Shown: positions 2,124 through 19,723, counted from the first letter of the stretch. The stretch: DNA of 64,000 nucleotides from Candidatus Levyibacteriota bacterium (GCA_041906785.1 JAYRIM010000023.1:64019-128018), one strand, 5' to 3'. Notes: generated from the letters alone by a model not told the origin. Made by a program: numbers and translations.

Positions 2124-4490
2124 TCAATAGTGGGCTTTGCGGCCATATGATGGTTTTCGCTGCTGTGTTCTCTCACGCTGAAATTGTCTTGATAAAGGAT
2201 GTGCGCTGCGCATTCTATCATCTCGGTCAAATCCTCTTCTTTCACCACGATCAAAATTCTGTCGATCTCCTCTATCAAAACTTCTTCTTTCTCCTCGATC
2301 AAATCCTCTTCCTCGTCCTTGTGGTCGACTACTTCTTTCTGGGCGTTCTCTATTACCTGAATCTGACTCCCCAGAATCATCGAGTAACATAGTTAAATTA
2401 ATTCTTCCTTGGTCATCAATCTCAATAACTTTTACAGTCACTTTCTGACCTAAACTGACAACTTCTTCTGGATGGTTTACAAAACCTTTTGCCATTTTTG
2501 AAACATGAACCATGCCTTCTTTTCCTGGTAAGAATTCCACAAAAGCTCCAAAAGGCAAAATGCGTTTTACTTCACCTTCATATACCTCACCTGGTTTTAC
2601 TTCTTTTGTGATGCCTTGAACCATGTTTAAAGCACTCTGTACTGATTCTTCAGAAGTACCAGCAATAGTAACTGTACCATCATCTTCTACATCAACAGTT
2701 GCACCTGTCGTAGCGATAATATTTTTAATAATCTTTCCACCCGGACCGATCAGTTCACCAATCTTATCAACAGGAATTTGTAATAACTCTATCTTTGGTG
2801 CAAACTCAGAAACTTCATCACGTGATTGTGGAATAGCTTTTAACATTTTTTCAAGAATACTCATTCTTGCAACCCGAGCTCTTTCAAATATTTGTTCTAT
2901 CTGTTCAACTGTTAAACCTGGAATTTTGACATCAAGCTGTATAGCTGTTACACCTGTATCTGTTCCAGCCACTTTAAAGTCCATGTCACCTGAAAAATCT
3001 TCAAGACCGATGATATCTGTGAGCAATACATATTCTCCTTCTTTTGTGGATCCATGAGGATATGACATCATTCCTACAGAAATACCTGCAACTGGTTTCG
3101 TAATAGGTACTCCAGCATCCATTAATGCTAATGTCGAACCACATGTTGATGCCATTGATGTTGATCCGTTTGATGAAGTTACTTCAGAAACGAGGCGAAT
3201 TGTATAAGGGAATTTTTCTTTACTAGGTATAACGGCTTCGAGCGCACGTTCTGCAAGGGCACCATGCCCGATTTCACGTCGAGACGTAAAACCGACTCTC
3301 CCTGCTTCTCCTACAGAGTAAGGGGGCATTGAGTAATGATGGATATATCTTTTAGACTCTTCTCCTTCTGCTGACTCTATCAGCTGTTCCATTCTTGGGG
3401 ATCCGAGTGTAGCAATAGTAAGAACTTGTGTTAATCCTCTTTGAAATATCGCTGAGCCGTGTGTACGAGGGAGTACTCCTACCTGGATATCAATCTGACG
3501 AACTTCATCCATAGCACGACCATCAACTCTTTTATTCTTTTTAACAACATCAGAACGAATTCCTTGGAATAAGACATATTCCAATGCCTTTGCGATAATC
3601 TTAGAATCAATTTCACTTTCTGGGTTAGCCATTTTTTCCTGTTCATAAATTTTTTTGACTAGATCTTGTTCTTCTGTACCCCCGAACTCTTTATTTGCTT
3701 TCGCTTTTGCTAATGCCGTAACCTCATCTTTATATGCTTTTTCGATTCGCTTTGCCATTTCAGCCATCAGGGCATTTGGATAAACCTGTACCTTCTGTTG
3801 TCCAACTTTCCCAACCAAATCGATAATAAAATTCAAGACTTTGTCAGTTTCCTCATGTGCACGTTTAATCGCTTCAAGCATAATCTTTTCTGACACTTGT
3901 TTCGCGCCAGACTCAATCATGACTGTTTTTCCTTTTACCTGAGATACGACTAAATCTAAATCAGAATATGCCATTTCTGTGGCTGTAGGATTAATAATAT
4001 ATTGTCCTTCATCATTTTCACCACGAACATATCCTACGCGAACTGCTCCAATAGGGCCATTCCAAGGGATAGGAGATGTTGCTATTGCCGCTGACACTGC
4101 ATTTATTGCGAGGATATCTGGTGCATGTTCACCATCAACTGATAAAACAGTAACCATCACTTGTACTTCACGTTTAAATTCTTTTGGAAAAAGGGGTCTA
4201 ATTGAACGGTCTATTAAACGACCAATAAGGATAGCTTCGTCAGAAGGTCTGCCTTCACGTTTTACCCAACGACTTCCTTTTATACGCCCTCCAGCATACA
4301 AACGTTCGACATATTCAACTGAGAGAGGGAAATAATCGAGCTCTGTTTCTTTACCTAATACAACTGTAGCCAGAACCATGGTATCACCAATTCGTCCCAA
4401 TACAGAAGCTGTTGCTTGCGGTGCAAGCTTACCCGTTTCTAAGGTTAATGTTTTCCCTGCAAATTCTAACGTTTCTGAGGTCTTAGTCAT
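2124..4490 (-). CDS. pnp: Polynucleotide phosphorylase (PNPase) with an arginine-rich repetitive C-terminal tail
   Basis: Two RNase PH domains, KH and S1 domains across the full length. C-terminal ~80 aa is low complexity: GRGRGFDRGERRSFDRGDRQNFDRGERRGFDRDDR. Confidence 0.95.
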   Translation of the reverse strand: MTKTSETLEFAGKTLTLETGKLAPQATASVLGRIGDTMVLATVVLGKETELDYFPLSVEYVERLYAGGRIKGSRWVKREGRPSDEAILIGRLIDRSIRPLFPKEFKREVQVMVTVLSVDGEHAPDILAINAVSAAIATSPIPWNGPIGAVRVGYVRGENDEGQYIINPTATEMAYSDLDLVVSQVKGKTVMIESGAKQVSEKIMLEAIKRAHEETDKVLNFIIDLVGKVGQQKVQVYPNALMAEMAKRIEKAYKDEVTALAKAKANKEFGGTEEQDLVKKIYEQEKMANPESEIDSKIIAKALEYVLFQGIRSDVVKKNKRVDGRAMDEVRQIDIQVGVLPRTHGSAIFQRGLTQVLTIATLGSPRMEQLIESAEGEESKRYIHHYSMPPYSVGEAGRVGFTSRREIGHGALAERALEAVIPSKEKFPYTIRLVSEVTSSNGSTSMASTCGSTLALMDAGVPITKPVAGISVGMMSYPHGSTKEGEYVLLTDIIGLEDFSGDMDFKVAGTDTGVTAIQLDVKIPGLTVEQIEQIFERARVARMSILEKMLKAIPQSRDEVSEFAPKIELLQIPVDKIGELIGPGGKIIKNIIATTGATVDVEDDGTVTIAGTSEESVQSALNMVQGITKEVKPGEVYEGEVKRILPFGAFVEFLPGKEGMVHVSKMAKGFVNHPEEVVSLGQKVTVKVIEIDDQGRINLTMLLDDSGESDSGNRERPERSSRPQGRGRGFDRGERRSFDRGDRQNFDRGERRGFDRDDRMRSAHPLSRQFQRERTQQRKPSYGRKAHY

Positions 4491-4596
4491 TTAGTTTTTG
4501 TATATTCCTTTCGTTCATTGTATACGTGGAGGTTTGGAGTTAGTATACTCTTTCAATCTACACTACGTATTCATGAAATGTCAATTAATAAAAAGC

Positions 4597-4866
4597 TTAG
4601 TCTTTTAATCCAATTTTTTTTAATATTCCTGATGCTCGTTTATCGTCAACCTTCTTAAGAAAATTAACCAGTCTGCGTCTCTTCGCAATCATTGATAATA
4701 ATCCCCTTCTACTATGTGTATCATGTAAATGCTGCTTTAAATGCTCTGCAAGGCGATTTATTCTATGGGTCAATAATGCAATTTGAACTTCAGGACTTCC
4801 TGTATCTCCATCTACTGTCTGAAAATCTTTAATAATTTGTTGTTTTTGTGTTAGGCTCAATGGCAT
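4597..4866 (-). CDS. rpsO: 30S ribosomal protein S15
   Basis: 89 aa; LTHRINRLAEHLKQHLHDTHSRRGLLSMIAKRRRLVNFL is the canonical S15 signature. Sits immediately upstream of pnp, the classic rpsO-pnp arrangement. Confidence 0.95.
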   Translation of the reverse strand: MPLSLTQKQQIIKDFQTVDGDTGSPEVQIALLTHRINRLAEHLKQHLHDTHSRRGLLSMIAKRRRLVNFLKKVDDKRASGILKKIGLKD

Positions 4867-4931
4867 AGTCGTAATTATATCACAGAAAATCTGTTACCGG
4901 CAAGTAGGCAGACAGTTTAGCATATTTTTGC

Positions 4932-6065
4932 TTAAACGTTCGAAGATCCTTTATAGACTTTTGGCGTTAACCAATCAGTCGGAGGATTTATATCATCGAA
5001 ATTATTTTGCTGTTCCTGTGGTGGAAGAGTTACCTGCTGTAATTGTGGCTGTCTTTGCTGTACAGGCTGTTGTTGTGGTTGGGATTGCTGTTGATTTTGC
5101 TGAGCAGGTTGCTGCTGTTGGCGACGTTGATCAAACTGTGGTCTGCGATCCCTGTTATCATTTCTATCAGATTGACGTTGGTCGAATTGTCTTCTATCAC
5201 GATTATCTCGTTGCTGCTGAGACTGCTGTTGAGGTTGCTGTTGAACCACTGGGCGTTGTTGTTGAAAATTTCCTTGAGGTTGCGTCTGCGGTTGAGGTTG
5301 TCGCATTTGTTGTGTAGTTGTAGGCACTTGCTGAGTTCGTGAACGGACAGCTCCTTGTCTCATAAGAATACCTGCCATTTCAAAAGCTATGGGAGTTGTT
5401 CGTGGACTTTGGAAATTTTCTGTTCCATATGAAATACCATCAATAAGATTCTGAGCGATATCAACATCAAGTGGAGCTTTCAAGTCATTTAATACTTGAA
5501 CAATCTGTTCACTTACAGACGATGCTCGTGGATTTACAATAACAATATCGCCAAATCCTTGATTTTCTTGTTTATTATCGATGTTAACAAGTGTAACATT
5601 CTTTAACGCGTCAGGGCTAAATGCTGAATGAATATCTGCTAACCGTGGAGTACCAACCACAAAGAGTAAATCTAACTCACCATTTCCTCGGGTATAACGC
5701 ACATCTTGTTCACTGAATGTAAGGCCTTGGTCTCCAGCTTTAACGACAATATTCAGATACCCATTTTCGATCGTATATGATACTTTCTCGATGTCACCCT
5801 CACGATAGGGGAACGATACCACCAGATCAGCTCCTCCACCTTCATAACGAGTTTTTACTTTATCAACACCCACGAGGTTAGAGACTTCGACAATAGGTTC
5901 AGTAGCGGAAAGTACTGCAGTATTTTTACCCATAGCTTGGAGGGAGAGATAGAGAGAAAGAGCAGCAGCCATTTCATCAATTGAGGGCTCTTTACCCACT
6001 GCTACGGCTACTGATTTACTACGTTGTAGCGCTTCTTTTAGGCGCTGAAGTGTCGCATTGTCCAT
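4932..6065 (-). CDS. NrnA-like DHH/DHHA1-fold protein with degenerate catalytic motifs and a Gln/Pro/Arg-rich C-terminal tail
   Basis: Aligns to B. subtilis NrnA (LLFVVGTPRLADI ~ LVIVCDTANQERI; PRASSVSEQIVQVL ~ TSASSVSEMIYELY). DHH motif is IDNKQEN instead of IDHHPNE. The N-terminal DxD motif reads SID. No GGGH motif. Tail: QQQRDNRDRRQFDQRQSDRNDNRDRRPQFDQRRQQQQ… Occupies the infB/rpsO position where nrnA, rbfA and truB are often found. Confidence 0.6.
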   Translation of the reverse strand: MDNATLQRLKEALQRSKSVAVAVGKEPSIDEMAAALSLYLSLQAMGKNTAVLSATEPIVEVSNLVGVDKVKTRYEGGGADLVVSFPYREGDIEKVSYTIENGYLNIVVKAGDQGLTFSEQDVRYTRGNGELDLLFVVGTPRLADIHSAFSPDALKNVTLVNIDNKQENQGFGDIVIVNPRASSVSEQIVQVLNDLKAPLDVDIAQNLIDGISYGTENFQSPRTTPIAFEMAGILMRQGAVRSRTQQVPTTTQQMRQPQPQTQPQGNFQQQRPVVQQQPQQQSQQQRDNRDRRQFDQRQSDRNDNRDRRPQFDQRRQQQQPAQQNQQQSQPQQQPVQQRQPQLQQVTLPPQEQQNNFDDINPPTDWLTPKVYKGSSNV

Positions 6066-6090
6066 ATATCCTATATTATAATTTGTTCAA

Positions 6091-7551
6091 TTATGCGACT
6101 GATATTATCATATCTCCTATAGTAATGTCAAGCTGGTGAGACAAAACTATCCCTGCCTCACCTTTTGTTACTTTTGAAGTTACATTTTTACCTACTCTTA
6201 AGGATTGAATAGTAGTTTCTCCTATTACTGTGTCACCACGAAGAACACGTATTTTATCTCCACGAACGATTCTTCCTTCAATAATGGAAATTCCATAAGC
6301 AAATGTCTTTTCAAATGGAAACTTTGCAAGGATTTTTGCTTTTCCTAGTTCAGTCTCAAGCTGCATTTGTTTTTTACCTTCTATAACATCGGCTATCTCG
6401 TCAAGCATTTCATAGATAATCTGATAATTTTTAATTAATACCTTTTCAGCCAAGGCTAACCTTTGAACCTCGGGACGTATTTTTACATTAAAACTCAATG
6501 CTAGAGCACCTGTGGCTTTTGCCTGTAGAACGTCAGCCTCGGTTACCTCACCAGTTTTTTGTGTAACGATAGTCACTTCCTTCGGCAGTGCGGCTACAAT
6601 AGCCTCGAGTGCACCTTCAGTATCAGCTGCTAAAATAAGATAGAGCGTATCACCATCTTGAGGCTTATGATAGAGAACATCTTCTGGTTTTCTTTCAGCT
6701 TCCTTAGCTGAAACTGTAACTTCAGCTTGTTTGGGAGTCACTATGCTTCCAACAGGTAAAACATCAGGAGCGCCTAGAATTTCTACTCCTTCTCCTACTG
6801 AGGCTTTATCAATAGGTTTTCCAAGATAATTCAGTACTGTCCTTAACCTGAATGTTTTTCCTTCACATGATACTTCTTCTCGTGTATGTAAGGTTCCTTG
6901 CTTAATAATAATCGTAGATTTAGCACCAGCGCGTGGATCGAGCTTTGATTCAATAACAATAGCCTTCAAGGCAGCAGAAGAAGAAGCTTTTTGATGAACT
7001 CCCCGCAGTTCAGATACTAATAAAATAAGATCAAGTAATTCTTTCATATTCTCACCTTTTTTTGCAGATACTTCTATAACAGGAATATCGCCACCATATC
7101 CTTCAAGAAGTACATTTTCACGAAGGAGTTGTTGTTTCACTTTTTCTACGTTTTTCGTTGGTAAGTCACTCATAGTTAACACAACGATAATAGGAAGATT
7201 TGCTGATTGAAGTAATTTTATACTCTCTCGTGTCTGTGGCATTACACCATCGACAGCAGAAACAATCAATAATCCAATATCAGCAGCTTGTGCTCCACGA
7301 CTACGCATGTTAGTAAATGCTTCATGACCTGGAGTATCGATAAACGTTATACGTCTCTTTTTACCTTCGTATTCCACTTCAACAGAAGATGATCCAATTC
7401 CTTGTGTAATACCACCATACTCGCGTTGAGCAACTGAAGTTTTTCTTAGAGCATCTAAAAGAGTAGTTTTACCATGATCGACATGACCTAATACAGTTAC
7501 AACTGGAGGAAAATCCCAATTTGTTTTCTGCTCTATATGTGTATTCTGCAT
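6091..7551 (-). CDS. infB: Translation initiation factor IF-2, short form (G domain + domain II + C-terminal domain, no N-terminal extension)
   Basis: VVTVLGHVDHGKTTLLDALRKT, DTPGHEAF, NKxD-like TMSDL. 486 aa. Confidence 0.95.
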   Translation of the reverse strand: MQNTHIEQKTNWDFPPVVTVLGHVDHGKTTLLDALRKTSVAQREYGGITQGIGSSSVEVEYEGKKRRITFIDTPGHEAFTNMRSRGAQAADIGLLIVSAVDGVMPQTRESIKLLQSANLPIIVVLTMSDLPTKNVEKVKQQLLRENVLLEGYGGDIPVIEVSAKKGENMKELLDLILLVSELRGVHQKASSSAALKAIVIESKLDPRAGAKSTIIIKQGTLHTREEVSCEGKTFRLRTVLNYLGKPIDKASVGEGVEILGAPDVLPVGSIVTPKQAEVTVSAKEAERKPEDVLYHKPQDGDTLYLILAADTEGALEAIVAALPKEVTIVTQKTGEVTEADVLQAKATGALALSFNVKIRPEVQRLALAEKVLIKNYQIIYEMLDEIADVIEGKKQMQLETELGKAKILAKFPFEKTFAYGISIIEGRIVRGDKIRVLRGDTVIGETTIQSLRVGKNVTSKVTKGEAGIVLSHQLDITIGDMIISVA

Positions 7552-7585
7552 AATAATTCCTTCTTAAATGAAGCTTTCTACTGTA

Positions 7586-7674
7586 ATTTCCAATCACCAA
7601 TTGCAATTTTCGAATTAATTGACTAATTAACGAATTCATAATTAATTGGAAACTGGAAATTCGAGATTGGAAAC
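7586..7674. repeat. AT-rich imperfect inverted repeat (AATTTCCAATC … GATTGGAAA, with internal AATTAATT palindromes) in the nusA-infB intergenic region
   Basis: Outer arms are exact reverse complements (TTTCCAATC / GATTGGAAA). Three AATTAATT palindromic cores inside. Confidence 0.5.
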
Positions 7675-7698
7675 TCTCCTATCGAATTTCATAAATGA

Positions 7699-8919
7699 TT
7701 ACTTAGTCTCCTCAGTTGGCGTTTGCACATCATTCGAGGTTTCAACTGTTTCTTCAGGAGTCTCAACTGCTTCAGTAGTTTTTACTTCTTCGCTTGCCGT
7801 GGTCACATCTTGGGTATCATCTTGAGTTGTCTGCGATGATGAATCTGTTTGTACATCTGAAGATGTTGATTCCTTCGCTTCAGTTTCTTCAGCTGGCGCA
7901 GCGGCCTCCGCTTCTTTTGCTGCTCCGGGCTCCTCTTTTCCTTCAATCTCTATACGATATCCTGTTAATTTTGAAGCTATTCGAACATTTTGACCATCTT
8001 TTCCAATTGCCAATGATAATTCTTCTTTTGGAACTGAAACAACTGCAAGTTTTTCATCCTCTTTTAGCGTCACACTGATATTTTTCGCTGGGGACAATGC
8101 TTGTGTGATATATACTTTCGAATCTTCAGACCACTGGATGATATCAATCTTTTCAATGCCACCAAATTCTTGAATAATTGCTTGCACACGGACACCTTTT
8201 TGGCCAACACAACTTCCAACTGGATCAATTCCTTGCTGATTTGATGCAACGGCGATTTTCGTCCTATTTCCTGCTTCTCTCGCGATTGCTTTAACAATGA
8301 CACTACCTTGGGCAACTTCAGGTACTTCTCGACGGAATAATCCTTCAATAAGCCCTGCATGAGATCGAGAAACAACAATTTCTTCACCTTTTAATCCTTC
8401 TCTAATCTCCTTAAGATACACTGCAAATCGTTGATTTAAGTGATATTTCTCTTGGGAGATCTGCTCTGTCGGGGGCATAATAGCTTCTGTTTTTCCAATA
8501 TCAACAATAATATTTTGGCCAGCAAACCGTAGTACCATTCCATTGACGACTGTTCCAATTTTTACTCGATAATCTGAAAAAATTGCTTCTTTTTCCTTTT
8601 CACGAATTTTCTGCAAGATAACTTGTTTCGCAGTTTGCGCGGCAATTCTTCCAAATCCAGGAGGTGTTACATCTTCATCATTATGAAAGATTCTAGCTTC
8701 ACCTGTAGATGAATTAAGTTCTGCACGGTATTCTTCAACCTCAACTCCTGGATGATCCTTTCTATAAGCAGCGAGAATCGCGTTTTTTACAGTCTCTAAA
8801 ACAACATTTGGATCGACTCCTCGCTCGGAAGCAACCTGATTAAGAGCTAACACAAATTCTGATCTTTGTACAACTGGCATAGTAGGGTACAGTATAGCAA
8901 ATAAGCATGTTACGATCAA
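7699..8919 (-). CDS. nusA: Transcription termination/antitermination factor NusA with an acidic Thr/Glu-rich C-terminal tail
   Basis: N-terminal domain, S1 and two KH regions (GxxG: IGKDGQNVRIASKLTG). Likely true start at the internal MPVVQRSEF (about 8880). Tail AEETEAKESTSSDVQTDSSSQTTQDD…. Confidence 0.9.
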   Translation of the reverse strand: MIVTCLFAILYPTMPVVQRSEFVLALNQVASERGVDPNVVLETVKNAILAAYRKDHPGVEVEEYRAELNSSTGEARIFHNDEDVTPPGFGRIAAQTAKQVILQKIREKEKEAIFSDYRVKIGTVVNGMVLRFAGQNIIVDIGKTEAIMPPTEQISQEKYHLNQRFAVYLKEIREGLKGEEIVVSRSHAGLIEGLFRREVPEVAQGSVIVKAIAREAGNRTKIAVASNQQGIDPVGSCVGQKGVRVQAIIQEFGGIEKIDIIQWSEDSKVYITQALSPAKNISVTLKEDEKLAVVSVPKEELSLAIGKDGQNVRIASKLTGYRIEIEGKEEPGAAKEAEAAAPAEETEAKESTSSDVQTDSSSQTTQDDTQDVTTASEEVKTTEAVETPEETVETSNDVQTPTEETK

Positions 8920-8939
8920 CCGTAGGTTTCATATATAAG

Positions 8940-9614
8940 CTATTTTTCCTTTTTAAATAACTTATATTGTTGAAGAAGAAGAAAAAGAGCTGGCAATAAC
9001 AGAAGATAGAGAAAACCTACCGAACTACTGTGTTTAACTATATATTTATATGTAACATCACTAAAATAATAGAGAGCGATATTTGGCAGCTCAGAAAGTG
9101 CTGTCGCAAAGAAAAATATTCTAAAATTAATCTTACTTAGCCCTGCGATATAACTAATGAAATCCATAATAGGCGCTGTTGTCAAACGAATTCCCAAAAA
9201 TGCTAGAAATTCTTTTTTCCTTGAAACCTTTTCTTCCCAGGCATGTAATTGTTGGAGAGGTACAAAACGTGAAACTAATGGTTTTCGATATACTCGAGCA
9301 ATCCAAAAAGCTATCGATGCACCGATAATAATTCCTAAAAATGCGAATATATAAGACCACAACCATCCATAAATAGGAATTAATAAAAATGATAATATAC
9401 CCCCTGGAATGGGAGGAATAACTACTGCGAGGATACGCCAAATAATTACAATGATGGGAGCGAGAATAACGTGCGCAATTGCAAAAGCCACGATTTGTTC
9501 TTGATTTGCAGGAAACCAAAAAAGAAAAAAAATAATAAGCAAAGAAGTTATGAGAAAAGATATATTAATAAGTCCTCGGGATTTCATAGTAGTATTATCG
9601 GAGAACAAAGGCAT
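8940..9614 (-). CDS. DedA/TVP38/TMEM64-family membrane protein
   Basis: Multi-TM protein with the VIPPIPGG motif characteristic of the DedA/SNARE-associated family. Start overlaps the stop of the upstream ClpB-like gene (TAATG). Confidence 0.65.
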   Translation of the reverse strand: MPLFSDNTTMKSRGLINISFLITSLLIIFFLFWFPANQEQIVAFAIAHVILAPIIVIIWRILAVVIPPIPGGILSFLLIPIYGWLWSYIFAFLGIIIGASIAFWIARVYRKPLVSRFVPLQQLHAWEEKVSRKKEFLAFLGIRLTTAPIMDFISYIAGLSKINFRIFFFATALSELPNIALYYFSDVTYKYIVKHSSSVGFLYLLLLPALFLLLQQYKLFKKEK

Positions 9615-12187
9615 TATTGTACAGCAACTATAATAGTATTCCCTTCATCAGTCGTCATCGTAAGGGTATTACCACGTTGTATCTCATCACGAAGTTTTTT
9701 CTGTGCAATAATATCCTCAACAGTGTCCTGAATATATCGTCGTAAAGGACGAGCACCGAACTGTTGATTAAAGCCTTCTTTCATAACTTTATTAAGAAGT
9801 CTATCATCGTACGAAAATGTTATATCCTGTTCGGCCAATCGCTTTTTAATACCATCTAACATAATTCGTGCTATGGAGCCCATTTCTGCTTCTCCTAAAG
9901 GCTTAAAGATAATAACATCGTCAAATCTATTCAATAATTCAGGTCTAAATAAACCCTTTTTCTGCAATTCATCAAGTAATCTATTCGAAAATTCATCTGT
10001 GACAGCAGAACCCTTTTCAATCTCCTCACGAATAAATTCTGCTCCCGCGTTTGATGTAGCAATAACAATACTGCTCGCAAAACTTACTGTTCGCCCTTTA
10101 TTATCTGTCAATCGTCCATCTTCAAGTACTTGCAAGAATAAATCAAGAATTTTAGGATGCGCTTTTTCAAATTCGTCAAGAAGTACTAAAGAAAATGGAT
10201 GATCTGCAATTTTATCTGTTAGTTCACCCCGCTCTTGTCCTTCACCAGGAGGAGCCCCAAGTAGTCTTTTTTCTCCTTCTATATCTGAATATTCACTCAT
10301 ATCAAGACGTATCATTTTATCTTCTCCACCGAAATAAAGTTCTGCTAACGCTTTCGCTGTTTCTGTTTTACCTACGCCTGTTGGGCCAAGGAAGAGGAAT
10401 GAGATAGGCCGTTTCATTGTGGTCATCCCCGCACGTAATCTTCGCATCGCTTCTGCTATAGCACGAATAGCATCCTCCTGTGCAATAACTCGCTTGTGCA
10501 TCAATTCTTCAAGGTGTAGCAGTATATCTTTTTCTTTCGCCGTGGGTTGGGATATAACAATGTGCGTTTTTTCTTGTATTGCGGTAACAATATCATCACC
10601 TCCAACAAATACTGTTTTCGTCTTACTAAACAAACCGCCAGCACCATGACTACGTGATGCAACAGTGTGGGAAACATCTTCTAAAACATTTACAGCACTT
10701 CCAGGTAATGCAGCTTCCTGGAAAAATCTATCGGCGTAATCTACTGCATTTTCAATTGCTTTGTAAGTCAACACAACTCTATTTTTTTCTTCAACTGCCG
10801 ATGCCCTTTCGAGAACCATTTTCATAGCTGTATGTTTATCTGGCTCTTCTAACTTAATAACAGTAAATGCTTCGAGCAATGAACTTTTTTCAATAAATGT
10901 TTTAAAATTACCTACCGTGACTGTCCCAATAACAGGCGTTTTTCCGGAAGTTAGATAAGGATATAGTGCACCAGATAAATCAATTTCGTAGGATGACGAT
11001 CCTGTAATGTTCTGTAATTCAGGAATGTATATCACTACATTTCCTGAGTGACTAACTTCTTCAATGATGGCTTGTAAACGACTTTCTAATTCTGCACGAT
11101 TTGCAGCGCCTGCGATGAGAGGACCTACCATAAGCTCAAGAACCTTAATATGAGGAACGCTTAATGATGTACTGTGAAGAAAGCTTTCTGTTGCCAATAA
11201 AGATACAAGATTTTCTCTACCACTACCTGGATCACCAACTAAGAGTATACTATTATTTTCTCGTTTAGAAAGAGTCTCAAGCATCTGTATAAATTCTTTT
11301 TCCCTACCAGTAATTTCTGGTTTCTTTTCAAATGCTTCATAAGAAAAATTTACAGTATATTTTTTCGTCTCATATGTCCATCCAGTTGTGAGTCCTTCAC
11401 CAATTCCACTACCATACATATGAACACGGCGTTTTTTCGGTTTTTCCTCATAAGGATACATATGTCTTGCCCAAGAAAGAATTTGCATAAGTTCTTCTTG
11501 TTTCAGTTGATGATTGAAAAGCAATTTGGTTTGTTGTTCTGTTAAAAAAAGATACGATCCGAATATATCAATTGAAGTTATATATGTTCCGCGAACACTT
11601 TTCGCTAGTTCGGCTGCATAGGTTATAACCTGTGTTAATGGAATATCTAGCAGCTGTATCGATTGCTTTTCAACTGGAATTTTATTCATTATGAATTGGA
11701 CTTGTTCATAATCCAGTAAGGAATATACAACTTGTTTTGTATTCTGATATACCAAAATTTTTTCTAATGCCTCTCGAGTCATCGATTCATACCAATTTTG
11801 ATCTTTATTATTTACTACTGAAATAACGGGTAAAACCTTTGCTATTTTATGCCTAAAGAAAAGCTCGATCTGTAAAGTAACAGAAAGGAAAAAAAGTGGA
11901 AGTTTTATATTTCCATGTTCACGAAATGTATTAAAAAACCAAACAGAAATGAAAAAAAGAACAACGACTCGTAATGTTCTCATAAGCGCTGTCTTATAAA
12001 AGTGATAAATCTTTGTATACGCCACCATATTTAAAAATGTATAAAAAGCTGAACGATAGTTACAACAGGCCAGGCCAGAAATAAAAGGAGAAATGCAATT
12101 TGAAATATTAGGATAACTGATAATAAAAGGAAACTGATAAGGATAAGTAATGTTTTTATACCTATTCCCATTCCTATTGAAAACCAA
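9614..12187 (-). CDS. Membrane-anchored ClpB/ClpC-like double-AAA+ protein with a degenerate first Walker A and no M-domain
   Basis: N-terminus from MRTLRVVVLFFISVWFF (probable start near 11983) has about 2 TM helices. NBD1 Walker A reads GDPGSGRE instead of GxxGxGKT. NBD2 is intact: GPTGVGKTETAKALAE, LVLLDEFEKAHP, sensor RPELLNRFDDVIIF. No IGF/LGF ClpP loop. Confidence 0.75.
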   Translation of the reverse strand: MVFNRNGNRYKNITYPYQFPFIISYPNISNCISPFISGLACCNYRSAFYTFLNMVAYTKIYHFYKTALMRTLRVVVLFFISVWFFNTFREHGNIKLPLFFLSVTLQIELFFRHKIAKVLPVISVVNNKDQNWYESMTREALEKILVYQNTKQVVYSLLDYEQVQFIMNKIPVEKQSIQLLDIPLTQVITYAAELAKSVRGTYITSIDIFGSYLFLTEQQTKLLFNHQLKQEELMQILSWARHMYPYEEKPKKRRVHMYGSGIGEGLTTGWTYETKKYTVNFSYEAFEKKPEITGREKEFIQMLETLSKRENNSILLVGDPGSGRENLVSLLATESFLHSTSLSVPHIKVLELMVGPLIAGAANRAELESRLQAIIEEVSHSGNVVIYIPELQNITGSSSYEIDLSGALYPYLTSGKTPVIGTVTVGNFKTFIEKSSLLEAFTVIKLEEPDKHTAMKMVLERASAVEEKNRVVLTYKAIENAVDYADRFFQEAALPGSAVNVLEDVSHTVASRSHGAGGLFSKTKTVFVGGDDIVTAIQEKTHIVISQPTAKEKDILLHLEELMHKRVIAQEDAIRAIAEAMRRLRAGMTTMKRPISFLFLGPTGVGKTETAKALAELYFGGEDKMIRLDMSEYSDIEGEKRLLGAPPGEGQERGELTDKIADHPFSLVLLDEFEKAHPKILDLFLQVLEDGRLTDNKGRTVSFASSIVIATSNAGAEFIREEIEKGSAVTDEFSNRLLDELQKKGLFRPELLNRFDDVIIFKPLGEAEMGSIARIMLDGIKKRLAEQDITFSYDDRLLNKVMKEGFNQQFGARPLRRYIQDTVEDIIAQKKLRDEIQRGNTLTMTTDEGNTIIVAVQ

Positions 12188-12366
12188 ATTAATCCTTGTC
12201 TATACTCATTTTTAAGAGGCTGGAAAAATGTACGAAGTAAAAGTGGTAAAGAAAATAATTGTAAAAATGCAGTGTTAAATGATAAAAAATAACGGATAAT
12301 TTCTTCAGGAGCTTCCCGATACCAAAATTTTAAAAAATCTATAGGAAGAAATAAATATGTTTGCAT
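12031..12366 (-). CDS. Small hypothetical polytopic membrane protein
   Basis: 111-aa hydrophobic ORF directly upstream of the ClpB-like gene, in a different frame. No recognisable family. Confidence 0.3.
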   Translation of the reverse strand: MQTYLFLPIDFLKFWYREAPEEIIRYFLSFNTAFLQLFSLPLLLRTFFQPLKNEYRQGLIWFSIGMGIGIKTLLILISFLLLSVILIFQIAFLLLFLAWPVVTIVQLFIHF

Positions 12367-12405
12367 ATAGCTAGTATAGAAACGATATATGAAAATTACA
12401 AATAG

Positions 12406-12996
12406 CTAGCGTTTAATGAAGCTGAGTTTTTCAAACAAGAGAAAAGATGCGGCAACAGTTCCTGTAGACCAGATCTCTCCTTTCATAATCATACGATATA
12501 CCTCTTCAAACGATAATGTTAAGAGTTCAATATCTTCTGTTATTTCAAGTACTGGTTTTTGTTTTAAAAAAACATCTTTCGCAATAAACATATAAATGTT
12601 ACCTAGTTCTTTGGAAGGATTGTGATTGAACTTTGCTAAAAAGGAGATGGAATCGGATGTGTATCCTGTTTCTTCTAATAATTCTCTTTTTGCAGCTTCG
12701 AATGGGATTTCGTTTTCATCAATATATCCTGCAGGATATTCAATCATAAACTCTCCAACTGCGTGTTTGTACTGTTTTTCTAGAATCAACTTATAATCTT
12801 TCGTTACAGGAATTACCTGTGCAACAGATTTATCCTGCCAAATATAATAGTCGTCAAGAATTTTCCCATTTGGAAGTTGGACTGTGTCCTGGCGAACTTT
12901 AAACCACTTATGATCAAGAGCGAGTCGAGAAGAAAGAGTTTTCCATTTCTTCATATGAATTCCACACAGTATCTCATGTATATTAATCCTTTGCAA
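12406..12996 (-). CDS. NUDIX hydrolase (ADP-ribose/nucleoside diphosphate pyrophosphatase-like)
   Basis: Nudix box GYIDENEIPFEAAKRELLEETGY (GX5EX7REUXEEXGU). The track's first codon is TTG; a likelier ATG start is at 12954 (MKKWKT…). Confidence 0.8.
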   Translation of the reverse strand: MQRINIHEILCGIHMKKWKTLSSRLALDHKWFKVRQDTVQLPNGKILDDYYIWQDKSVAQVIPVTKDYKLILEKQYKHAVGEFMIEYPAGYIDENEIPFEAAKRELLEETGYTSDSISFLAKFNHNPSKELGNIYMFIAKDVFLKQKPVLEITEDIELLTLSFEEVYRMIMKGEIWSTGTVAASFLLFEKLSFIKR

Positions 12997-13321
12997 GGCT
13001 ATTTAGAAAAGAAGAAATAATGGAAAGAAGGACACTAAATAATAAAGCCCACCAAAAAGAGTTTACTCGAAATCCTTCAATAAGAAGGTCTGTAAGAGAA
13101 ATCATTAATGCATTGAGAACAAGCGCAAAAACACCCAATGTAACCAATGTTATGGGGAGTGTTAGGAAAAACAGAATTGGCTTAATTGAGGCGTTAATAA
13201 TGCCTAATACCAATGCAACAATTAAAGCAGTTACAAACGAATCAACATACACTCCTGGTAATAAATATGCCGCAACGAAAACAGCCATTCCACTTATAAA
13301 CCAGTTAATTAATATTTTCAT
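12983..13321 (-). CDS. DUF360 / phage-holin-4-superfamily small membrane protein
   Basis: 112 aa, about 3-4 TM, with GMAVFVAAYLLPGVYVDSFVTALIVALVLGIINASIKPIL matching the DUF360 (YvlD/YqxA-like) pattern. Its ATG overlaps the ClpC-NBD2 stop as ATGA. Confidence 0.6.
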   Translation of the reverse strand: MKILINWFISGMAVFVAAYLLPGVYVDSFVTALIVALVLGIINASIKPILFFLTLPITLVTLGVFALVLNALMISLTDLLIEGFRVNSFWWALLFSVLLSIISSFLNSLAKD

Positions 13322-14979
13322 GATGATTCATGTAATCCATCTACACCTGAAGCATTTATTTCCCCATTTTCTAGTACAGAAACATGAGCTTGTTCGTTCG
13401 CATAGTTTTGTGAGCCTAGACCTACTGTAGCACTTGTTCCTCCTGCCACATATGCTCCACCTGAAGCATAGTTTGGCGGCGGAGTACCTTGAATGAATTG
13501 ATTTGTAAATGATTGATTAGTTTGCACAGATGGCTCATCAGACGGATTTATAGAAGGTGTTGCTGTTGGGTGAGTCGAATCTGGAGACAAAACACTTAAA
13601 GGATCAAAAGATGTCGCTACTGTAGGCGCTGATTGGCCCGTCGAAGGAACTGTCTGCTGTCCATAAACATAAGGTTGCTGTGATAACTGTGGCGTTTGAG
13701 TACTAGAAACTTGAGGTTGAGTATGCTGATCAGGTTGGTCTGTTGTTGGCTGAACCGTGGGGTTGTTTGTCTCCAAAGTAGCTTGAGCTGGCTGTTTTCC
13801 ACCTTCAGGTTTTTTAAACAAGAATTGGTTTGTTCTCGTGTCGTAATCTATCACAATAGTATCTCCTTGAACAAATTGTTTCCCGATGATTTGCAGCGCT
13901 ATTGGATTTTCTATAGATGTCTGGATTAACCTGCGCAACGGACGAGCACCGTACATTGGGTCATAACCTTCTTGTGCAAGCTTATTTAATGCTCTATCGG
14001 TTACTTTTACTGCAAATCCTTGTTCTTTTAATAATTTTGCAGTTTTTTCAAGACCTCGTTTCGCAATACCTACCATATCAGATCTCTGCAGTGGTTTAAA
14101 AATAACAATATCATCATAACGATTAAGTAATTCTGGCCGGAAAAATTTCCGTAGTTCAGTATTAACGACTGTTGATAGTTCAGCAAAATCTTTTTCATAT
14201 TGTTCTTTTGATTTTTCTTTTTTCGCATCTTGTTCACCTAATTTTTCAGTGATCATACCACTACCTATATTAGATGTACAAATGACTATAGTGTTTTTAA
14301 AGGATATCGTATTTCCTTTATTATCAGTTAAACGTCCGTCTTCTAAAAGCTGTAACAGAATATTAAAAACATCAGGATGTGCTTTTTCAACTTCATCAAG
14401 AAGGACTATTGAATATGGTTTCGCTCGAACTGCTTCGGTTAATTGTCCACCTTCTTCATATCCTACATACCCAGGAGGAGCGCCTATTAACTTAGCCACT
14501 TCATGTTTTTCCATATACTCTGACATATCTAAACGAACCATTGCATCATCACGTCCGAATAAAATTTCAGCAAGAGTTTTTGCTAATTCTGTCTTTCCTG
14601 TTCCGGAAGGTCCTAAAAATATAAAAGAGGCAATAGGTCTCTGTCCGCTTGCTAAACCAATTCTGCCACGGCGTACTGCTTCTGCAACTTTAACCACTGC
14701 TTCTTCCTGATCAACAAGTCGAAGATGGATTCTATCTTCAAGTTGCAAGAGTTTTGCGCTTTCATCCTCTGTCAACTTAGAAATTGGTATCCCTGTCCAA
14801 CTACTTACCACATTTTCAACATCACGCTTTGTAACAGCCATGCTATTTTCAACAGGTTCTGGTGTAGTTTGCTTACTCGGTGTAGGTGTACCAGGAGCAG
14901 CAGAAACTGGCTGGACTTCTGTCGCTTGTTGTTTTTCTTCTTTTACATTTACTGTATTTTGGGTATTTTTATCGTTCAT
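13318..14979 (-). CDS. clpC: ClpC/ClpA-type chaperone, C-terminal half (NBD2/D2 AAA+ module) as a separate ORF with a Gln/Thr/Pro-rich C-terminal tail
   Basis: Begins MNDKNTQ…VTKRDVENVVSSWTGIPISKL (canonical D2 start). Walker A GPSGTGKTELAKTLAE, Walker B IVLLDEVEKAHPDVFNILLQLLEDGRLTD, sensor-2 RPELLNRYDDIVIFKPL. No [LIV]G[FL] ClpP-docking loop. Long PTVQPTTDQPDQHTQPQVSSTQTPQ tail. Confidence 0.85.
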   Translation of the reverse strand: MNDKNTQNTVNVKEEKQQATEVQPVSAAPGTPTPSKQTTPEPVENSMAVTKRDVENVVSSWTGIPISKLTEDESAKLLQLEDRIHLRLVDQEEAVVKVAEAVRRGRIGLASGQRPIASFIFLGPSGTGKTELAKTLAEILFGRDDAMVRLDMSEYMEKHEVAKLIGAPPGYVGYEEGGQLTEAVRAKPYSIVLLDEVEKAHPDVFNILLQLLEDGRLTDNKGNTISFKNTIVICTSNIGSGMITEKLGEQDAKKEKSKEQYEKDFAELSTVVNTELRKFFRPELLNRYDDIVIFKPLQRSDMVGIAKRGLEKTAKLLKEQGFAVKVTDRALNKLAQEGYDPMYGARPLRRLIQTSIENPIALQIIGKQFVQGDTIVIDYDTRTNQFLFKKPEGGKQPAQATLETNNPTVQPTTDQPDQHTQPQVSSTQTPQLSQQPYVYGQQTVPSTGQSAPTVATSFDPLSVLSPDSTHPTATPSINPSDEPSVQTNQSFTNQFIQGTPPPNYASGGAYVAGGTSATVGLGSQNYANEQAHVSVLENGEINASGVDGLHESS

Positions 14980-14981
14980 AT

Positions 14982-16628
14982 TTATACAGTTGGTGGTGGC
15001 GCAAAATCAGCAACTGTTGGCGCGCCATATCCTTGGATAGCACCTACTGGTCCATTTCCAATTTGTTCTTGCGCACTTGGTTCTGAGACACTCATCGGCG
15101 CACCTGGAGCAATTGACTCTTGCTCTGCCACCTCTTCTTTTGGTTTCTCTGTTTCTGTTTCTTTTTTATCAGAGCCAGGCTCAGTTTTAATTACTTCTAC
15201 TAATTCCTGCTGTGAATCTGTTTTATTTGAACCGATACGAGGAAGATGCGTTTCAGAACGGCCAAGTTTCACCCATGCAGCTGCTTCATCAAGTAAATCA
15301 ACAGCTTTATCAGGAAGATATCGCTCACCAATATATTTCTTAGATAATTTCACTGCTGCTTCAATTGTTGCATCGCTGATCGTAACACCATGGAACCGCT
15401 CATATTTAGACTTTAACACTTTTAACATCTCCATTGCTGCTTCTTCACTTGGCTCTTCAGCAAGCACAGGCTGGAATCGTCGCTCTAAGGCTTTATCTTT
15501 CTCAAAATTTTTTCTATATTCCATAGTAGTTGTCGCACCAATAATTTGCAATTGGCCACGAGCCAAATGAGGTTTAATTATATTTGACGCATTCATCGAA
15601 TCTCCACCGTCTCCCCCCGCACCCATAAGAATATGAATTTCATCAATAAAAAGAATAACTTGTCCAGCAGCAGCCATCGCTTCCTGGATGACAGTTCGTA
15701 ACCGTTCTTCAAATTCTCCACGATGACTCGCACCCGCAACAATAGATGATAAATCTAACTGAATAATCCGTTTATTAAGTAATTCTTTCGGTGCACTTCC
15801 AGCGACTATCGCTTGCGCTAATCCTTCTATAATGGCAGTTTTTCCTACACCTGCTTCTCCGATAATAATCGGGTTGTTTTTTGTTCTTCTGAGTAGGATA
15901 TGAACAAGTCTGTCAATCTCTTTATCTCTTCCGGCAATTGGATCTAGTTTACCTTCACGAGCTTGCTGGGTTAAATCAATACCAAACCGATCTAATACTG
16001 ACTTTTTCCCATATGCAGACCCATGGGTTTTGGCTAATTTATCCTGAACCTGTTCTTTCTGCATACCTTGTGTCTGTAATAAATTTGAAGTAGGTAACGT
16101 GTCTGAATATAAAGCTAATAATACATCCTCAGGTGTTATAAATGCGGATTCGCGGGATTTCGCATCTCGATACGCTTGTTCGAACACTTGTCTCGACTTA
16201 TCACTGAGGGTGGGCTGTCCCATAAATGATCCTGGTTGTTCTTTACTTTGAATTTCTCTGGTGACTTTTGCTGGATCAACAGAAAAATCTTCAAGTAATT
16301 TAAAAATATCTTCATCATAGAGTAAACCTATGAGAATCTGTTCAGGCTCAATAAAAGGTTGTCTAATTCTTTTCGTTTCCTCCTGTGCGTGTTGAAGAAC
16401 CTGTGTTGCTCGTTGATCTAAATGAGAAAGCGCTGACAAGTTTTGACGAAATGAAGCATTCATTTTAGAACCACCCATCTCTATCTGAGGATTCTGGGGT
16501 GGGGTATTGATGCCTCCACTACCGGACGATTGCATACCTGGCTGCTGTTGAGGGACACCTGCAGCCTGCGATTGCTGCATTGGTGGTGTTTCCTGTTTTT
16601 TAGATTGACTAAATAAATTACCAAACAT
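14982..16628 (-). CDS. clpC: ClpC/ClpA-type chaperone, N-terminal half (Q-rich extension + Clp-N repeats + NBD1/D1 AAA+ module) as a separate ORF
   Basis: Clp N-domain repeats, Walker [17 protein letters not shown], Walker [10 protein letters not shown], then [14 protein letters not shown]. It then runs into a disordered E/K/T/P-rich tail instead of an M-domain. Stop TAA at 14984..14982 is followed 2 nt later by the ATG of the NBD2 ORF (TAATATG). Confidence 0.85.
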
Positions 16629-16683
16629 AGTACTTACTTACCATTGTGTCGTCTTTCACAAGAATCGTCAAGTCCTCTGCCAT

Positions 16684-17100
16684 TTAACCGAATCCAGGGA
16701 TTTTAAGAATATCTTGTGTGATAACTTCGATGAACAGAAATCCAAAAACAGCGAGAAATAATCCTATTAGCGCATACATAATATAACTTTTTCCATTACT
16801 TAACTGTTGTGGATTACCTCTAGAAGTCATGATTAAATATCCGCCTATAATGATAAATAATAAAGAAAGACCACCAACTAGTCCTAAGCCCCATTTGTAA
16901 TATGTCTCAACAAATGAACCGACATCTGTGGGAATACAACCAAGATCTGATTTCACGCAGTTATCTTCTGCCAATGCATACGGGAGAGTATTTTTATTCG
17001 TTAGAAAAAACGAGAGGAAAAATAGAAAAAATAAGCCACGTTTAAAGGCAGTCATATATTCATCGTAACAGAGGATAAACAGAATTACAACATTGCACAA
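16684..17100 (-). CDS. Small secreted 2-TM protein, VirB2/TrbC-pilin-like topology (tentative)
   Basis: Signal-peptide-like N-terminus (probable start MTAFKRGLFFLFFLSFFL… near 17055), AxA-type cleavage site (YALA|EDN), Cys-containing short mature N-terminus, then two hydrophobic helices with GG motifs. Assignment rests on topology only. Confidence 0.35.
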   Translation of the reverse strand: MCNVVILFILCYDEYMTAFKRGLFFLFFLSFFLTNKNTLPYALAEDNCVKSDLGCIPTDVGSFVETYYKWGLGLVGGLSLLFIIIGGYLIMTSRGNPQQLSNGKSYIMYALIGLFLAVFGFLFIEVITQDILKIPGFG

Positions 17101-17163
17101 AATAAAGCTTGATTGCCTGTCTTATCAAAGAAAATGATAAGACAATACAATATCTTAAGTTAT

Positions 17164-18048
17164 CTATATTTGATACTTTTTTAACTTATTTGAATAATGA
17201 TTGAGAACAGATTTTCTATAATCAAATGGATGAAATGCTAAAAATGCGTCAGTTACTACTTCTGTCGTTAACGTCTTTCGTATCGAAAACAATTGAATTT
17301 TTTTTAAGAACAAATTTAATAAATAGAAGGCGGGCAGTACACTTACCATAAACAAATTTTTAACCAAACTTACTCTTTTCTGATAAAACAGTCTTTTCTC
17401 TTTTACATTTGGCATAAAAGCATATATCCACGCATTTTCTTGAAGGAGTTTTCTATATATATGTTTTTTATCCACAAGAGGATAAAGTTGTGCTAATTCA
17501 TGAGCTGTATAAACATCTTGCCGGTTTTTAGGAAAAACACATGAGTTCTCATCGATCATCATATTAATACACACGGTATTACTCTCATTATGCTGGTTTT
17601 TCTTCCTACGCACACCTAAAAACTCTAAGAGTATTAACATTAAGAAGCGAGAAATCCACAGGGTTTTTTTACTAGCAATAATAAAAAAATCTATATCATC
17701 ATCTCTTTCTGCGTTTTTTGCTGCTAGACTTCCACTTATCCCTATAAACTGTATGGTCGGGATGTTAGATAGTATATTTGCAATTTTTTTAGCTAAAGCA
17801 ATTTTTTTTCGATTCTCGTACTGTAATGAAATTCGTCTTTCAATAATAGATTCTCTATCTGCAAAAGAAAAAAATCCTCTTTTTTGAACGATTATGTCTT
17901 TTAAACTGTTAAGTGCTTTATTAAAATCTCCTTTATGTATTGGTTTTTTACTTTTTAAGTAATACCAAAGTTCCTTTTTCGTTAAAGGATAATTAAATAA
18001 ATCACTATAAATCAATGTCTGTAGAACTTGTTTTCTATAATATTCCAT
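17164..18048 (-). CDS. Polymerase-beta-superfamily nucleotidyltransferase-like protein
   Basis: GISGSLAAKNAERDDDIDFFII fits the G[SG]x(9-13)[DE]x[DE] NTase signature. About 90 aa of N-terminal and about 170 aa of C-terminal sequence of unknown fold. Its start overlaps the upstream SBP gene by 14 nt. Confidence 0.45.
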   Translation of the reverse strand: MEYYRKQVLQTLIYSDLFNYPLTKKELWYYLKSKKPIHKGDFNKALNSLKDIIVQKRGFFSFADRESIIERRISLQYENRKKIALAKKIANILSNIPTIQFIGISGSLAAKNAERDDDIDFFIIASKKTLWISRFLMLILLEFLGVRRKKNQHNESNTVCINMMIDENSCVFPKNRQDVYTAHELAQLYPLVDKKHIYRKLLQENAWIYAFMPNVKEKRLFYQKRVSLVKNLFMVSVLPAFYLLNLFLKKIQLFSIRKTLTTEVVTDAFLAFHPFDYRKSVLNHYSNKLKKYQI

Positions 18049-19723
18049 TTTTGGTGAAGACTGTTTTTACTCCATTAATAATGGTACTTACAGCAGACTC
18101 TATAGACGTATAAGAAAAAATCGCTTGTATCGCACGAGAAAGATACTCATTTAAATCTTCCGTAAATGTATCATCGTATGTATCACTCGCAAAGTAGCTT
18201 GATTTGGCATAGGGTGCTTGCTCAATAAATCGATATACCATTGGATTATTTTTTAACGACTCTGCCAAATCCTTTCTCGCATAAGGAGTACCAAATGCTC
18301 TTGTCTTACTACTTTCCGTATATAATTTTTGCACGACATCTTTTTCGCTTAAATATTTTAGAAACAATAATGCTTCTTTCTGATGTTGACTTTTCTTCGA
18401 CACACCATTTACCCAATAACTCGCTATAGTCATCTTGTCATGTTTCGGGATATAGGGGACAGGATATAGATCAAATTTTAAATTGACACCATTTTCTTTA
18501 CTTATTTTTTGAATGCTAAAAATATCCCAAGAGAAACCAAAATAAAATCCTACCTTTCCCTTAGCAAAAGCCGTCATAGAAGTGTTGGTTTTATCATTCG
18601 GATCCCACGTTCTATCTGAACTCGAAGCAAAAGGTGTATAGAATCGTAATGCAGCAACCATACTATCTGAAGTTTCAGCTAACTGATCAAATTTCATTCC
18701 ACTTTGTAAAAAAAGGAGAGAAACTATATCTGCTGCATGATTTATATTGTCGTAGGCTCCCATCGCAGCTCCTGAAATTGTGATTTTGTTATTATCTTTT
18801 GTCGTCATAGTCTTTGCAGCAATACTGAACTGATCCCATGTTTGCGGAATCTGAATCTGTGCAGCATTAAATATCTGCCTATTAACAAAAAGTGTAAGCG
18901 TATCAATGCCTTGGGGAATGCCATAGATTGCACCATTCAGAACCAGATCATCTAGAACAACTGGATAATACGTTGCCTTAAAATCATCTAACGTCACAAC
19001 ATCACTTGGCAATGGTAGTAAGACTTCCTGAAGAGTTGGTACCCATGTATTATGATAAGTAAACACATCAGGTGCCGTATTCGTCGTAGTTCTCCCTAGG
19101 ACTCTATCTTTATATTGTTTTTTATCGCGTTTTTCATATACCACTTTAATACCCGGATATTTTTTCTCAAAGTCATCGATAATAGGCTTTAGAGTCTTCG
19201 CATCTTCCCATAACCCCCAATAAGTAATTGTCGCATTGTTATACTTTTTATCACCAGAGAAAAAGCGAGATACTCCTCCTATAAGTAATGCTAAAACTAC
19301 GAGTATACCTATTCCTCCAAAAACCATTTTTAAAATTTTACTTCTAAGCGGACCAGCCATTGGCGGCGCTGAATCAGGAAGATTTCCTCCCATACTGTCA
19401 GGCGGAACATCAGGTGGAGGAGGCTCAGCCGGTCCTGATGCTTGTGGTAGTGGTTGCTCTACCGATGTTTCCTCTTGAGGTAGTGGTGGGGGTAGTATTT
19501 CTTCTGTTGGCTGTTGTGTACTATCAGGTTGTGCGACATCAGTCTGCGTAACTGGCGGAGATGGCTCTGAAACAGACTGTTCTACTGGCTGCGGAGGTTG
19601 TGATGCAGATGGTCCATATAAATCTTGCACTGTTATCCTCGGAGAATCTTGTGTAGCTGGTTGATTTCCTGCACTCTGGTCATTATTTGGTGGATTGTAG
19701 ACTACATTATTGTTTTCATCCAT
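18035..19723 (-). CDS. ABC-transporter extracellular solute-binding protein (family 1, sugar-type) with a Pro/Gln-rich N-terminal region and a TM anchor
   Basis: After the low-complexity N-terminus and one TM helix: TYWGLWEDAKTLKPIIDDFEKKYPGIKVVYEKRD…, typical of SBP_bac_1 proteins. Confidence 0.7.
   Translation of the reverse strand: MDENNNVVYNPPNNDQSAGNQPATQDSPRITVQDLYGPSASQPPQPVEQSVSEPSPPVTQTDVAQPDSTQQPTEEILPPPLPQEETSVEQPLPQASGPAEPPPPDVPPDSMGGNLPDSAPPMAGPLRSKILKMVFGGIGILVVLALLIGGVSRFFSGDKKYNNATITYWGLWEDAKTLKPIIDDFEKKYPGIKVVYEKRDKKQYKDRVLGRTTTNTAPDVFTYHNTWVPTLQEVLLPLPSDVVTLDDFKATYYPVVLDDLVLNGAIYGIPQGIDTLTLFVNRQIFNAAQIQIPQTWDQFSIAAKTMTTKDNNKITISGAAMGAYDNINHAADIVSLLFLQSGMKFDQLAETSDSMVAALRFYTPFASSSDRTWDPNDKTNTSMTAFAKGKVGFYFGFSWDIFSIQKISKENGVNLKFDLYPVPYIPKHDKMTIASYWVNGVSKKSQHQKEALLFLKYLSEKDVVQKLYTESSKTRAFGTPYARKDLAESLKNNPMVYRFIEQAPYAKSSYFASDTYDDTFTEDLNEYLSRAIQAIFSYTSIESAVSTIINGVKTVFTKNGIL

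Follow-up and report, generated by a model that had tools for sequence, protein, structure and literature searches.

On the minus strand of a 64,000-nucleotide stretch of DNA from a Candidatus Levyibacteriota bacterium (GCA_041906785.1 JAYRIM010000023.1:64019-128018; here referred to as the window), the two halves of a ClpB/ClpC-like Hsp100 ATPase are followed by a small DUF360 membrane protein and a NUDIX hydrolase. The initial annotation, made from the sequence, regarded this combination as unexplained and proposed either a stress- or nucleotide-signal-responsive membrane module or a toxin/immunity- or defense-like arrangement. The locus thus raises the question of which of these genes, if any, belong together. 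The answer that we consider on balance probable is that these are ordinary chromosomal genes, with DUF360 ending a clade-specific Hsp100 unit that would have a role in membrane stress and with the NUDIX gene present as an incidental passenger. DUF360 and NUDIX both belong to well-populated known families, and the three-gene combination is not upheld as a unit.

Gene order and junctions at the locus

Direct reading of the open reading frames, together with Pfam searches, gave the order Clp_N+NBD1, NBD2, DUF360, NUDIX, TM111, and Clp2 along the minus strand from 16628 to 9614, with the following features:

16628..14982, minus strand: first half of the split Hsp100, 548 aa; Clp_N, NBD1, and lid, then a low-complexity tail (Pfam Clp_N, AAA, AAA_lid_9)
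14979..13318, minus strand: second half of the split Hsp100, 553 aa; NBD2 and D2-small (Pfam AAA_2, 3.5e-66; ClpB_D2-small)
13321-13318, minus strand: ATGA overlap of the NBD2 stop codon (TGA) and the DUF360 start codon (ATG), read directly as 'tcatcATGAaaata'
13321..12983, minus strand: DUF360 (PF04020, YvlD/LiaZ family), 112 aa; TAA at 12985-12983
12954..12406, minus strand: NUDIX hydrolase of the NudF/ADP-ribose-pyrophosphatase type, 182 aa (PF00293)
12366..12031, minus strand: TM111, a small membrane protein, starting 39 nt past the NUDIX stop codon and ending 2 nt before Clp2
12028..9614, minus strand: Clp2, a second Hsp100-like ATPase, 804 aa (Pfam AAA_2, ClpB_D2-small, and a weak AAA_lid_9)

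The gene order, the gene identities, and the ATGA overlap between NBD2 and DUF360 are those of the initial annotation, and its estimate of about 15 to 30 nt between the DUF360 stop codon and the NUDIX start codon becomes 28 nt with the ATG at 12954. We take this ATG as the NUDIX start because a 100%-identical public protein of 182 aa (P0121, carrying PF28549 NDPSase_N and PF00293) and the lengths of homologues (177 to 188 aa, aligned at 97 to 99% coverage) agree with it; an in-frame upstream TTG (12996) has no such support from homologues or from the public protein.

Close spacing is common throughout the window. Besides the NBD2/DUF360 junction, five exact 4-nt overlaps occur elsewhere, about half of the ~45 same-strand junctions overlap or are separated by ≤30 nt, and the Clp, DUF360, and NUDIX genes are among 16 minus-strand genes that follow one another without interruption (842-19723). 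Because 4-nt overlaps and short gaps are common in this compact genome, the packing around DUF360 and NUDIX is not unusual, and tight packing alone is not meaningful at this locus. The same features favor a reading in which the genes have no functional relationship: they would be neighbors through the compactness and co-directionality of a CPR genome, and the order NBD2 to DUF360 would persist by descent and not by selection. We regard this as a serious possibility, although one that falls short of probable.

A Pfam scan of the neighboring genes found Clp, NUDIX, VTT, T4SS pilin, and Polbeta domains. No minus-strand terminator-like site lies between the Clp, DUF360, and NUDIX genes, the only ones being within the coding regions of DUF360 and VTT, and scans for promoter-like and terminator-like sites gave no excess over shuffled sequence. 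The absence of intergenic terminators is compatible with co-transcription and is not evidence for it. The window contains no match to the CIRCE or CtsR heat-shock operators. In the reading that we prefer, DUF360 of the window is probably co-transcribed with NBD1 and NBD2 and would be coupled translationally to NBD2 via the ATGA overlap.

A split Hsp100 related to ClpB and ClpC

The first half of the split Hsp100 corresponds to positions 3 to 398 of the NCBIfam ClpB model and the second half to positions 526 to 849; the split falls exactly at the position of the ClpB M-domain, and the M-domain region is missing. Like ClpB and ClpC, the two genes jointly hold Clp_N, NBD1, NBD2, and D2-small, and they match both structures with E values of ~1e-110, resembling ClpB and ClpC equally. 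Unlike those proteins, the Hsp100 of the window is encoded in two genes, carries low-complexity tails, and has DUF360 behind it. A further difference is that no IGF/VGF-type ClpP-docking loop was seen in NBD2, in which 'EKLGEQD' aligns with 'ERFGELD' of ClpB (structure 4d2q); the lack of an obvious docking tripeptide in this loop agrees with the description of the protein as a protease-independent unfoldase.

The NBD2 protein ends in a Q/P/T/S-rich tail of ~170 aa that reaches the ATGA overlap with DUF360. Long Q/P/S/T-rich low-complexity tails are carried by, or form the ends of, both Clp halves. The split and the tails are common to the related loci L001, L004, L167, and L168, and the length of NBD2 varies from 538 to 670 aa.

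DUF360 is a full-length member of the YvlD/LiaZ family

DUF360 matches PF04020 at 118.6 bits (cutoff of 28.8; E value of 2.3e-34) over profile positions 1 to 105 of 105, and 563 homologues were found, the closest in Patescibacteria, which marks the host as a CPR bacterium. A confident AlphaFold model (pLDDT of 91.2), for which 36 homologues were used, has long helices at residues 2-20, 29-53, 65-80, and 89-111 and a short helix at residues 55-60, and in this model the four transmembrane helices of the family are present. Seven residues (N43, P48, T54, P56, G63, G83, and F84) are invariant, being common to 35 homologues. There was no match to DUF360 in NCBIfam or, by profile-sequence search, in the PDB, and a fold search with the model returned no PDB match at an E value of ≤0.001. 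The model also contains an internal two-fold repeat of helix, short strand, and helix, with the motifs LLPGVYVDSF and LIEGFRVNSF, which points to DUF360 having arisen through the duplication, long ago, of a two-helix unit.

Those members of this family that have been studied all act in envelope-stress responses. The yvlABCD genes are part of the core sigma-W regulon (PMC3498285), and their enterococcal counterparts, liaXYZ (corresponding to yvlB/pspC/yvlD), are regulated by LiaR (PMC7033496). LiaZ contributes to membrane remodeling and to the redistribution of phospholipid microdomains; the start of liaZ overlaps liaY, LiaZ is reported to interact with LiaY, and cells clump when liaZ is expressed without regulation (PMC11601895). 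In Listeria, exposure to a membrane-active bacteriocin raises expression of the YvlD (DUF360) homologue (PMC12791056). The window protein resembles YvlD of B. subtilis, LiaZ of Enterococcus, and Lmo2484 of Listeria in matching PF04020 over its full length, in its size (~110 to 118 aa), and in its four membrane helices. It further resembles these relatives as a chromosomal gene that ends a stress-related unit and whose start overlaps the upstream gene, as in liaY/liaZ. It differs from them in its CPR host and in having an Hsp100 NBD2 as its upstream partner, and a Pfam search of the neighboring genes found none of the PspC-domain or toastrack (DUF4097) genes of YvlABCD/LiaXYZ near it. A clade-conserved position right behind a split Hsp100 is a new genomic context for the family. 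By analogy with YvlD of the sigma-W regulon and LiaZ of the LiaFSR regulon, DUF360 would most likely help to keep the membrane or envelope in balance during stress. It would make sense to find such a protein in the company of a chaperone that unfolds proteins; a direct physical partnership between the two is something that we would only infer.

DUF360 follows the split Hsp100 in related lineages

The contexts of DUF360 homologues were compared over a range of identities. The loci were as follows:

L001, L002, and L003 (identical DNA, three samples), DUF360 85% identical: window order including NUDIX, TM109, and Clp2; ATGA overlap
L004, DUF360 75% identical: NBD1, NBD2, DUF360, TM109, Clp2, without NUDIX; 51-nt spacer
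L167, DUF360 68% identical: NBD1, NBD2, DUF360, FtsK; 114-nt spacer
L174, DUF360 67% identical: Clp not nearby
L168 and L169, DUF360 66% identical: NBD1, NBD2, DUF360, TM109, Clp2, without NUDIX; 59-nt spacer
L170, DUF360 65% identical: NBD2, DUF360, FtsK; 35-nt spacer
L175, DUF360 63% identical: Clp not nearby
L005, DUF360 60% identical: SecA, DUF360, Fic; Clp not nearby

DUF360 sits directly behind NBD2 on the same strand in five further lineages of Patescibacteria as well, where it is 65 to 85% identical and lies -4 to 114 nt from NBD2. Of these, only the nearest relative (L001) retains the ATGA overlap; L004, L167, L168, and L170 have spacers of 35 to 114 nt. Both the genes upstream of NBD1 (a T4SS pilin, a 1236-aa protein, or a 505-aa protein) and those downstream of DUF360 (NUDIX, TM109-Clp2, or FtsK) vary by lineage. 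Since the flanks differ on both sides, NBD1-NBD2-DUF360 is the minimal shared block; it is a conserved block restricted to one clade, and across the five lineages rearrangement breakpoints lie at both of its ends and never within it. The idea that the linkage is conserved among relatives therefore stands for DUF360 behind the split-Clp NBD2 and does not stand for NUDIX.

Outside this clade, the association with Clp was not seen. Among 80 GTDB species, no DUF360 locus (47 to 61% identity, mostly Bacteroidota and Patescibacteria) has an adjacent Clp gene, the nearest DUF360 in that scan being 61% identical and the close relatives listed above having been drawn from individual contig look-ups. 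The immediate DUF360 neighbors in 75 to 77 GTDB species are mixed housekeeping genes. DUF360, NUDIX, and TM111 are likewise absent from all 80 generic ClpB/C loci taken from metagenomes (≤55% identical), a set that serves as a negative control only: it was seeded with the NBD2 motif DMSEYMEK, and because this seed is universal, the scan gave only generic ClpB/C loci.

In 7 of 77 GTDB loci (L033, L036, L039, L042, L046, L054, and L076), probably all Flavobacteriaceae, a trigger-factor gene follows DUF360 on the same strand. Trigger factor was identified by ORF length in these loci and confirmed by Pfam in L039 only, where the run behind DUF360 is tig, clpP, and clpX (L039:407-4236). The Flavobacteriaceae loci place DUF360 next to Clp/proteostasis genes a second time, independently of the Patescibacteria block.

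These comparisons bear on the reading without any functional relationship from both sides. The mixed housekeeping neighbors of DUF360, the disappearance of the Clp adjacency by ~60 to 67% DUF360 identity, and the loss of the ATGA overlap outside the nearest relative all speak for that reading, and the block itself could simply reflect synteny that has stayed unbroken because the relatives are fairly close. The position of the breakpoints exactly at the block ends in five lineages, however, argues against mere persistence by descent, as does the separate arrival of DUF360 next to tig-clpP-clpX in Flavobacteriaceae. We prefer the reading in which DUF360 ends the split Hsp100 unit within one CPR clade. 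If the link between DUF360 and the Hsp100 is functional, it would hint at a coupling of protein unfolding to the membrane in CPR bacteria.

A stronger version of this link, in which DUF360 serves the split Hsp100 specifically as its membrane partner (an anchor, adaptor, or client gate) and brings the unfoldase to the membrane, appears unlikely to us. It would fit the conserved NBD2-DUF360 junction with its ATGA translational coupling in two lineages, the next unit at the locus, in which a Clp that is probably membrane anchored likewise has a small membrane protein beside it, and the precedent of LiaZ and its upstream, start-overlapping partner LiaY (PMC11601895). All the evidence for it from this locus is synteny, however, and the link is missing outside one clade, with DUF360 occurring elsewhere without a Clp neighbor.

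The spacers between NBD2 and DUF360 in the relatives hold -10-like hexamers, one of which, in L168, is a perfect TATAAT placed 7 nt ahead of the ATG, and so DUF360 may have its own promoter in the relatives with spacers. Visual inspection picked out terminator-like sequences behind DUF360 in L004 and L167, but folding gave them no support (z of 0.47 and 1.73, respectively). Right behind the DUF360 stop codon in L004, where the window has NUDIX, lies an element of ~105 nt (L004:7813-7917) whose edges are a perfect 12-nt inverted repeat (ACCCCGTTAGAA…TTCTAACGGGGT) and which forms a long hairpin (-37 kcal/mol; z of -4.1). Candidate identities for this element are a MITE-like scar, a structured RNA, and a terminator.

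The neighboring TM111-Clp2 pair

TM111 belongs to a Patescibacteria-restricted family of ~109-aa membrane proteins (111 aa in the window) with 141 homologues, all unnamed, and has no Pfam or NCBIfam match. Members of the family lie directly upstream of a Clp2 homologue in L001 to L004, L168/L169, L058, and L062. The start of Clp2 is set by its L001 counterpart, to which it is 77% identical from residue 1 onward. Its translation has two hydrophobic segments at the N terminus, degenerate motifs in NBD1 (GDPGSGRE and IYIPELQ), and a canonical NBD2; the protein is probably membrane anchored. The TM111-Clp2 pair is kept down to 37 to 40% Clp2 identity, beyond the linkage of DUF360 or NUDIX.

The presence of this pair invites a broader proposal, in which DUF360 would have been recruited, within one Patescibacteria clade, to a split Hsp100 without an M-domain or ClpP loop and would form, with TM111-Clp2 and the DedA/VTT protein, an island for membrane-protein quality control peculiar to these bacteria with reduced genomes. 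We consider this improbable.

The NUDIX hydrolase looks like a passenger

NUDIX matches PF00293 at 38.1 bits (cutoff of 21.1; E value of 1.9e-9), and its Nudix box, read directly from the translation, is complete (G76-Y98, GYIDENEIPFEAAKRELLEETGY) and matches GX5EX7REUXEEXGU. A proline ~15 residues after the box is a mark of the ADP-ribose/NDP-sugar pyrophosphatase subfamily; Pro113 of the window protein lies 15 residues past the box and aligns with the proline in 'fhpqPS' of Ndx2. The best solved relatives are NudF (5c7q; 4e-21 over query residues 4 to 173), Ndx2 (2yvm), ADP-ribose pyrophosphatases, and NUDT5. The protein is thus like NudF of Bdellovibrio (5C7Q), Ndx2 of T. thermophilus (2YVM), human NUDT5, and E. 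coli NudE in its complete Nudix box and N-terminal NDPSase_N domain, in its length of ~182 aa, in the conserved proline past the box, and in NudF matches that span nearly the whole protein. Unlike these enzymes, it scores far under the NCBIfam equivalog cutoffs, the best being NudE at 68.6 bits against 169. Because every equivalog cutoff is missed, the sequence places the protein in the NudF/ADP-sugar pyrophosphatase class and does not assign its exact substrate.

A NUDIX gene occupies the gap between DUF360 and TM111 only in the window and in L001 to L003; it is not at the corresponding site in L004, L167, L168/L169, or L170. In L001 to L003, the gene has lost 1 nt shortly past codon 5 or so (ATGAAAAAATGGAATAAATTTCTTCAGAGCTAG; L001:10363-10400) and reaches a stop after 10 codons, homology resumes in another frame, and gene callers give a 136-aa N-truncated product. 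This frameshift agrees in three independent assemblies (L001, L002, and L003). NUDIX as a conserved member of a module is accordingly not borne out, its site being shared with one close relative only, in which it is frameshifted. An HMM search over 1.27 Mb around DUF360 in 80 species found no adjacent NUDIX of the window type, and a recurring set of NUDIX, DUF360, and split Clp was found at none of 80 DUF360 loci and none of 80 Clp loci elsewhere.

Because its orthologues elsewhere have unrelated neighbors, NUDIX looks like a passenger that is incidental to the Clp-DUF360 block. The orthologues in L172 and L173 are 51 to 54% identical, and that in L173 adjoins a HAD hydrolase. A single gain in the lineage of the window and L001 would be a more economical reading of the distribution than repeated loss. 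NUDIX would then be a house-cleaning enzyme that entered the gap between DUF360 and TM111-Clp2 in the sublineage of the window and has been carried passively.

In L172, a CPR-like genome, the NUDIX orthologue (54% identical) lies beside trigger factor, ClpP, and rpoB and directly upstream of the first two (L172:6001-8543), a placement with proteostasis genes that is probably a coincidence. L174 encodes a 131-aa NUDIX protein on the strand opposite DUF360 and 2 kb away from it; this protein is unrelated (no tblastn match), and we take its presence as chance.

Holin, toxin, and defense readings of DUF360

Like phage holins, DUF360 is small and multi-pass, and it carries the labels 'Phage_holin_4_2' in Pfam and 'holin superfamily IV' in TCDB. 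Unlike them, it has neither a phage or prophage context nor an adjacent endolysin, and it ends in a short C-terminal tail with weak charge (…NSLAKD). PHROG gave no family match for DUF360 at an E value of ≤0.01, BFVD gave no viral fold at ≤0.001, and the PADLOC models gave no match for DUF360 or TM111. A Pfam scan of the neighbors found no endolysin, phage, or toxin-antitoxin gene adjacent to it; its flanks are Clp ATPases, NUDIX, and VTT, with NusA/IF-2 in relatives, and not a lysis cassette. 'Holin' is thus only the Pfam name of this family, the holin, toxin/immunity, and defense readings are not sustained, and the label 'Phage_holin_4_2' should not be read as evidence of holin function or toxicity.

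In PADLOC, NUDIX weakly matches the candidate singleton PDC-S07 (5e-8), and the Clp genes match DolB and PDC-M37B via the generic AAA_2 domain only. We rejected membership in a defense system, since the matches of Clp and NUDIX are to generic domains and form no one system.

That NUDIX, DUF360, and the unfoldase act together, as a nucleotide-signal membrane system, a holin-like toxin/immunity arrangement, or an anti-phage defense, is very improbable: the Pfam name of PF04020, the weak PADLOC matches, and the clumping upon unregulated liaZ expression (PMC11601895) lean that way, but NUDIX is missing at the site in four of the five related lineages and frameshifted in the fifth, DUF360 has neither a phage or defense match nor a neighbor of that kind, and the PADLOC matches make up no complete system.

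DUF360 in public records

An exact look-up of the DUF360 protein returned no public record, because the gene caller had chosen an antisense ORF. On a 100%-identical public contig, a spurious antisense ORF of 136 aa was placed over DUF360 (L171:961-1371, corresponding to 13020-13430 on the plus strand of the window), and greedy longest-ORF selection also picks this antisense ORF.
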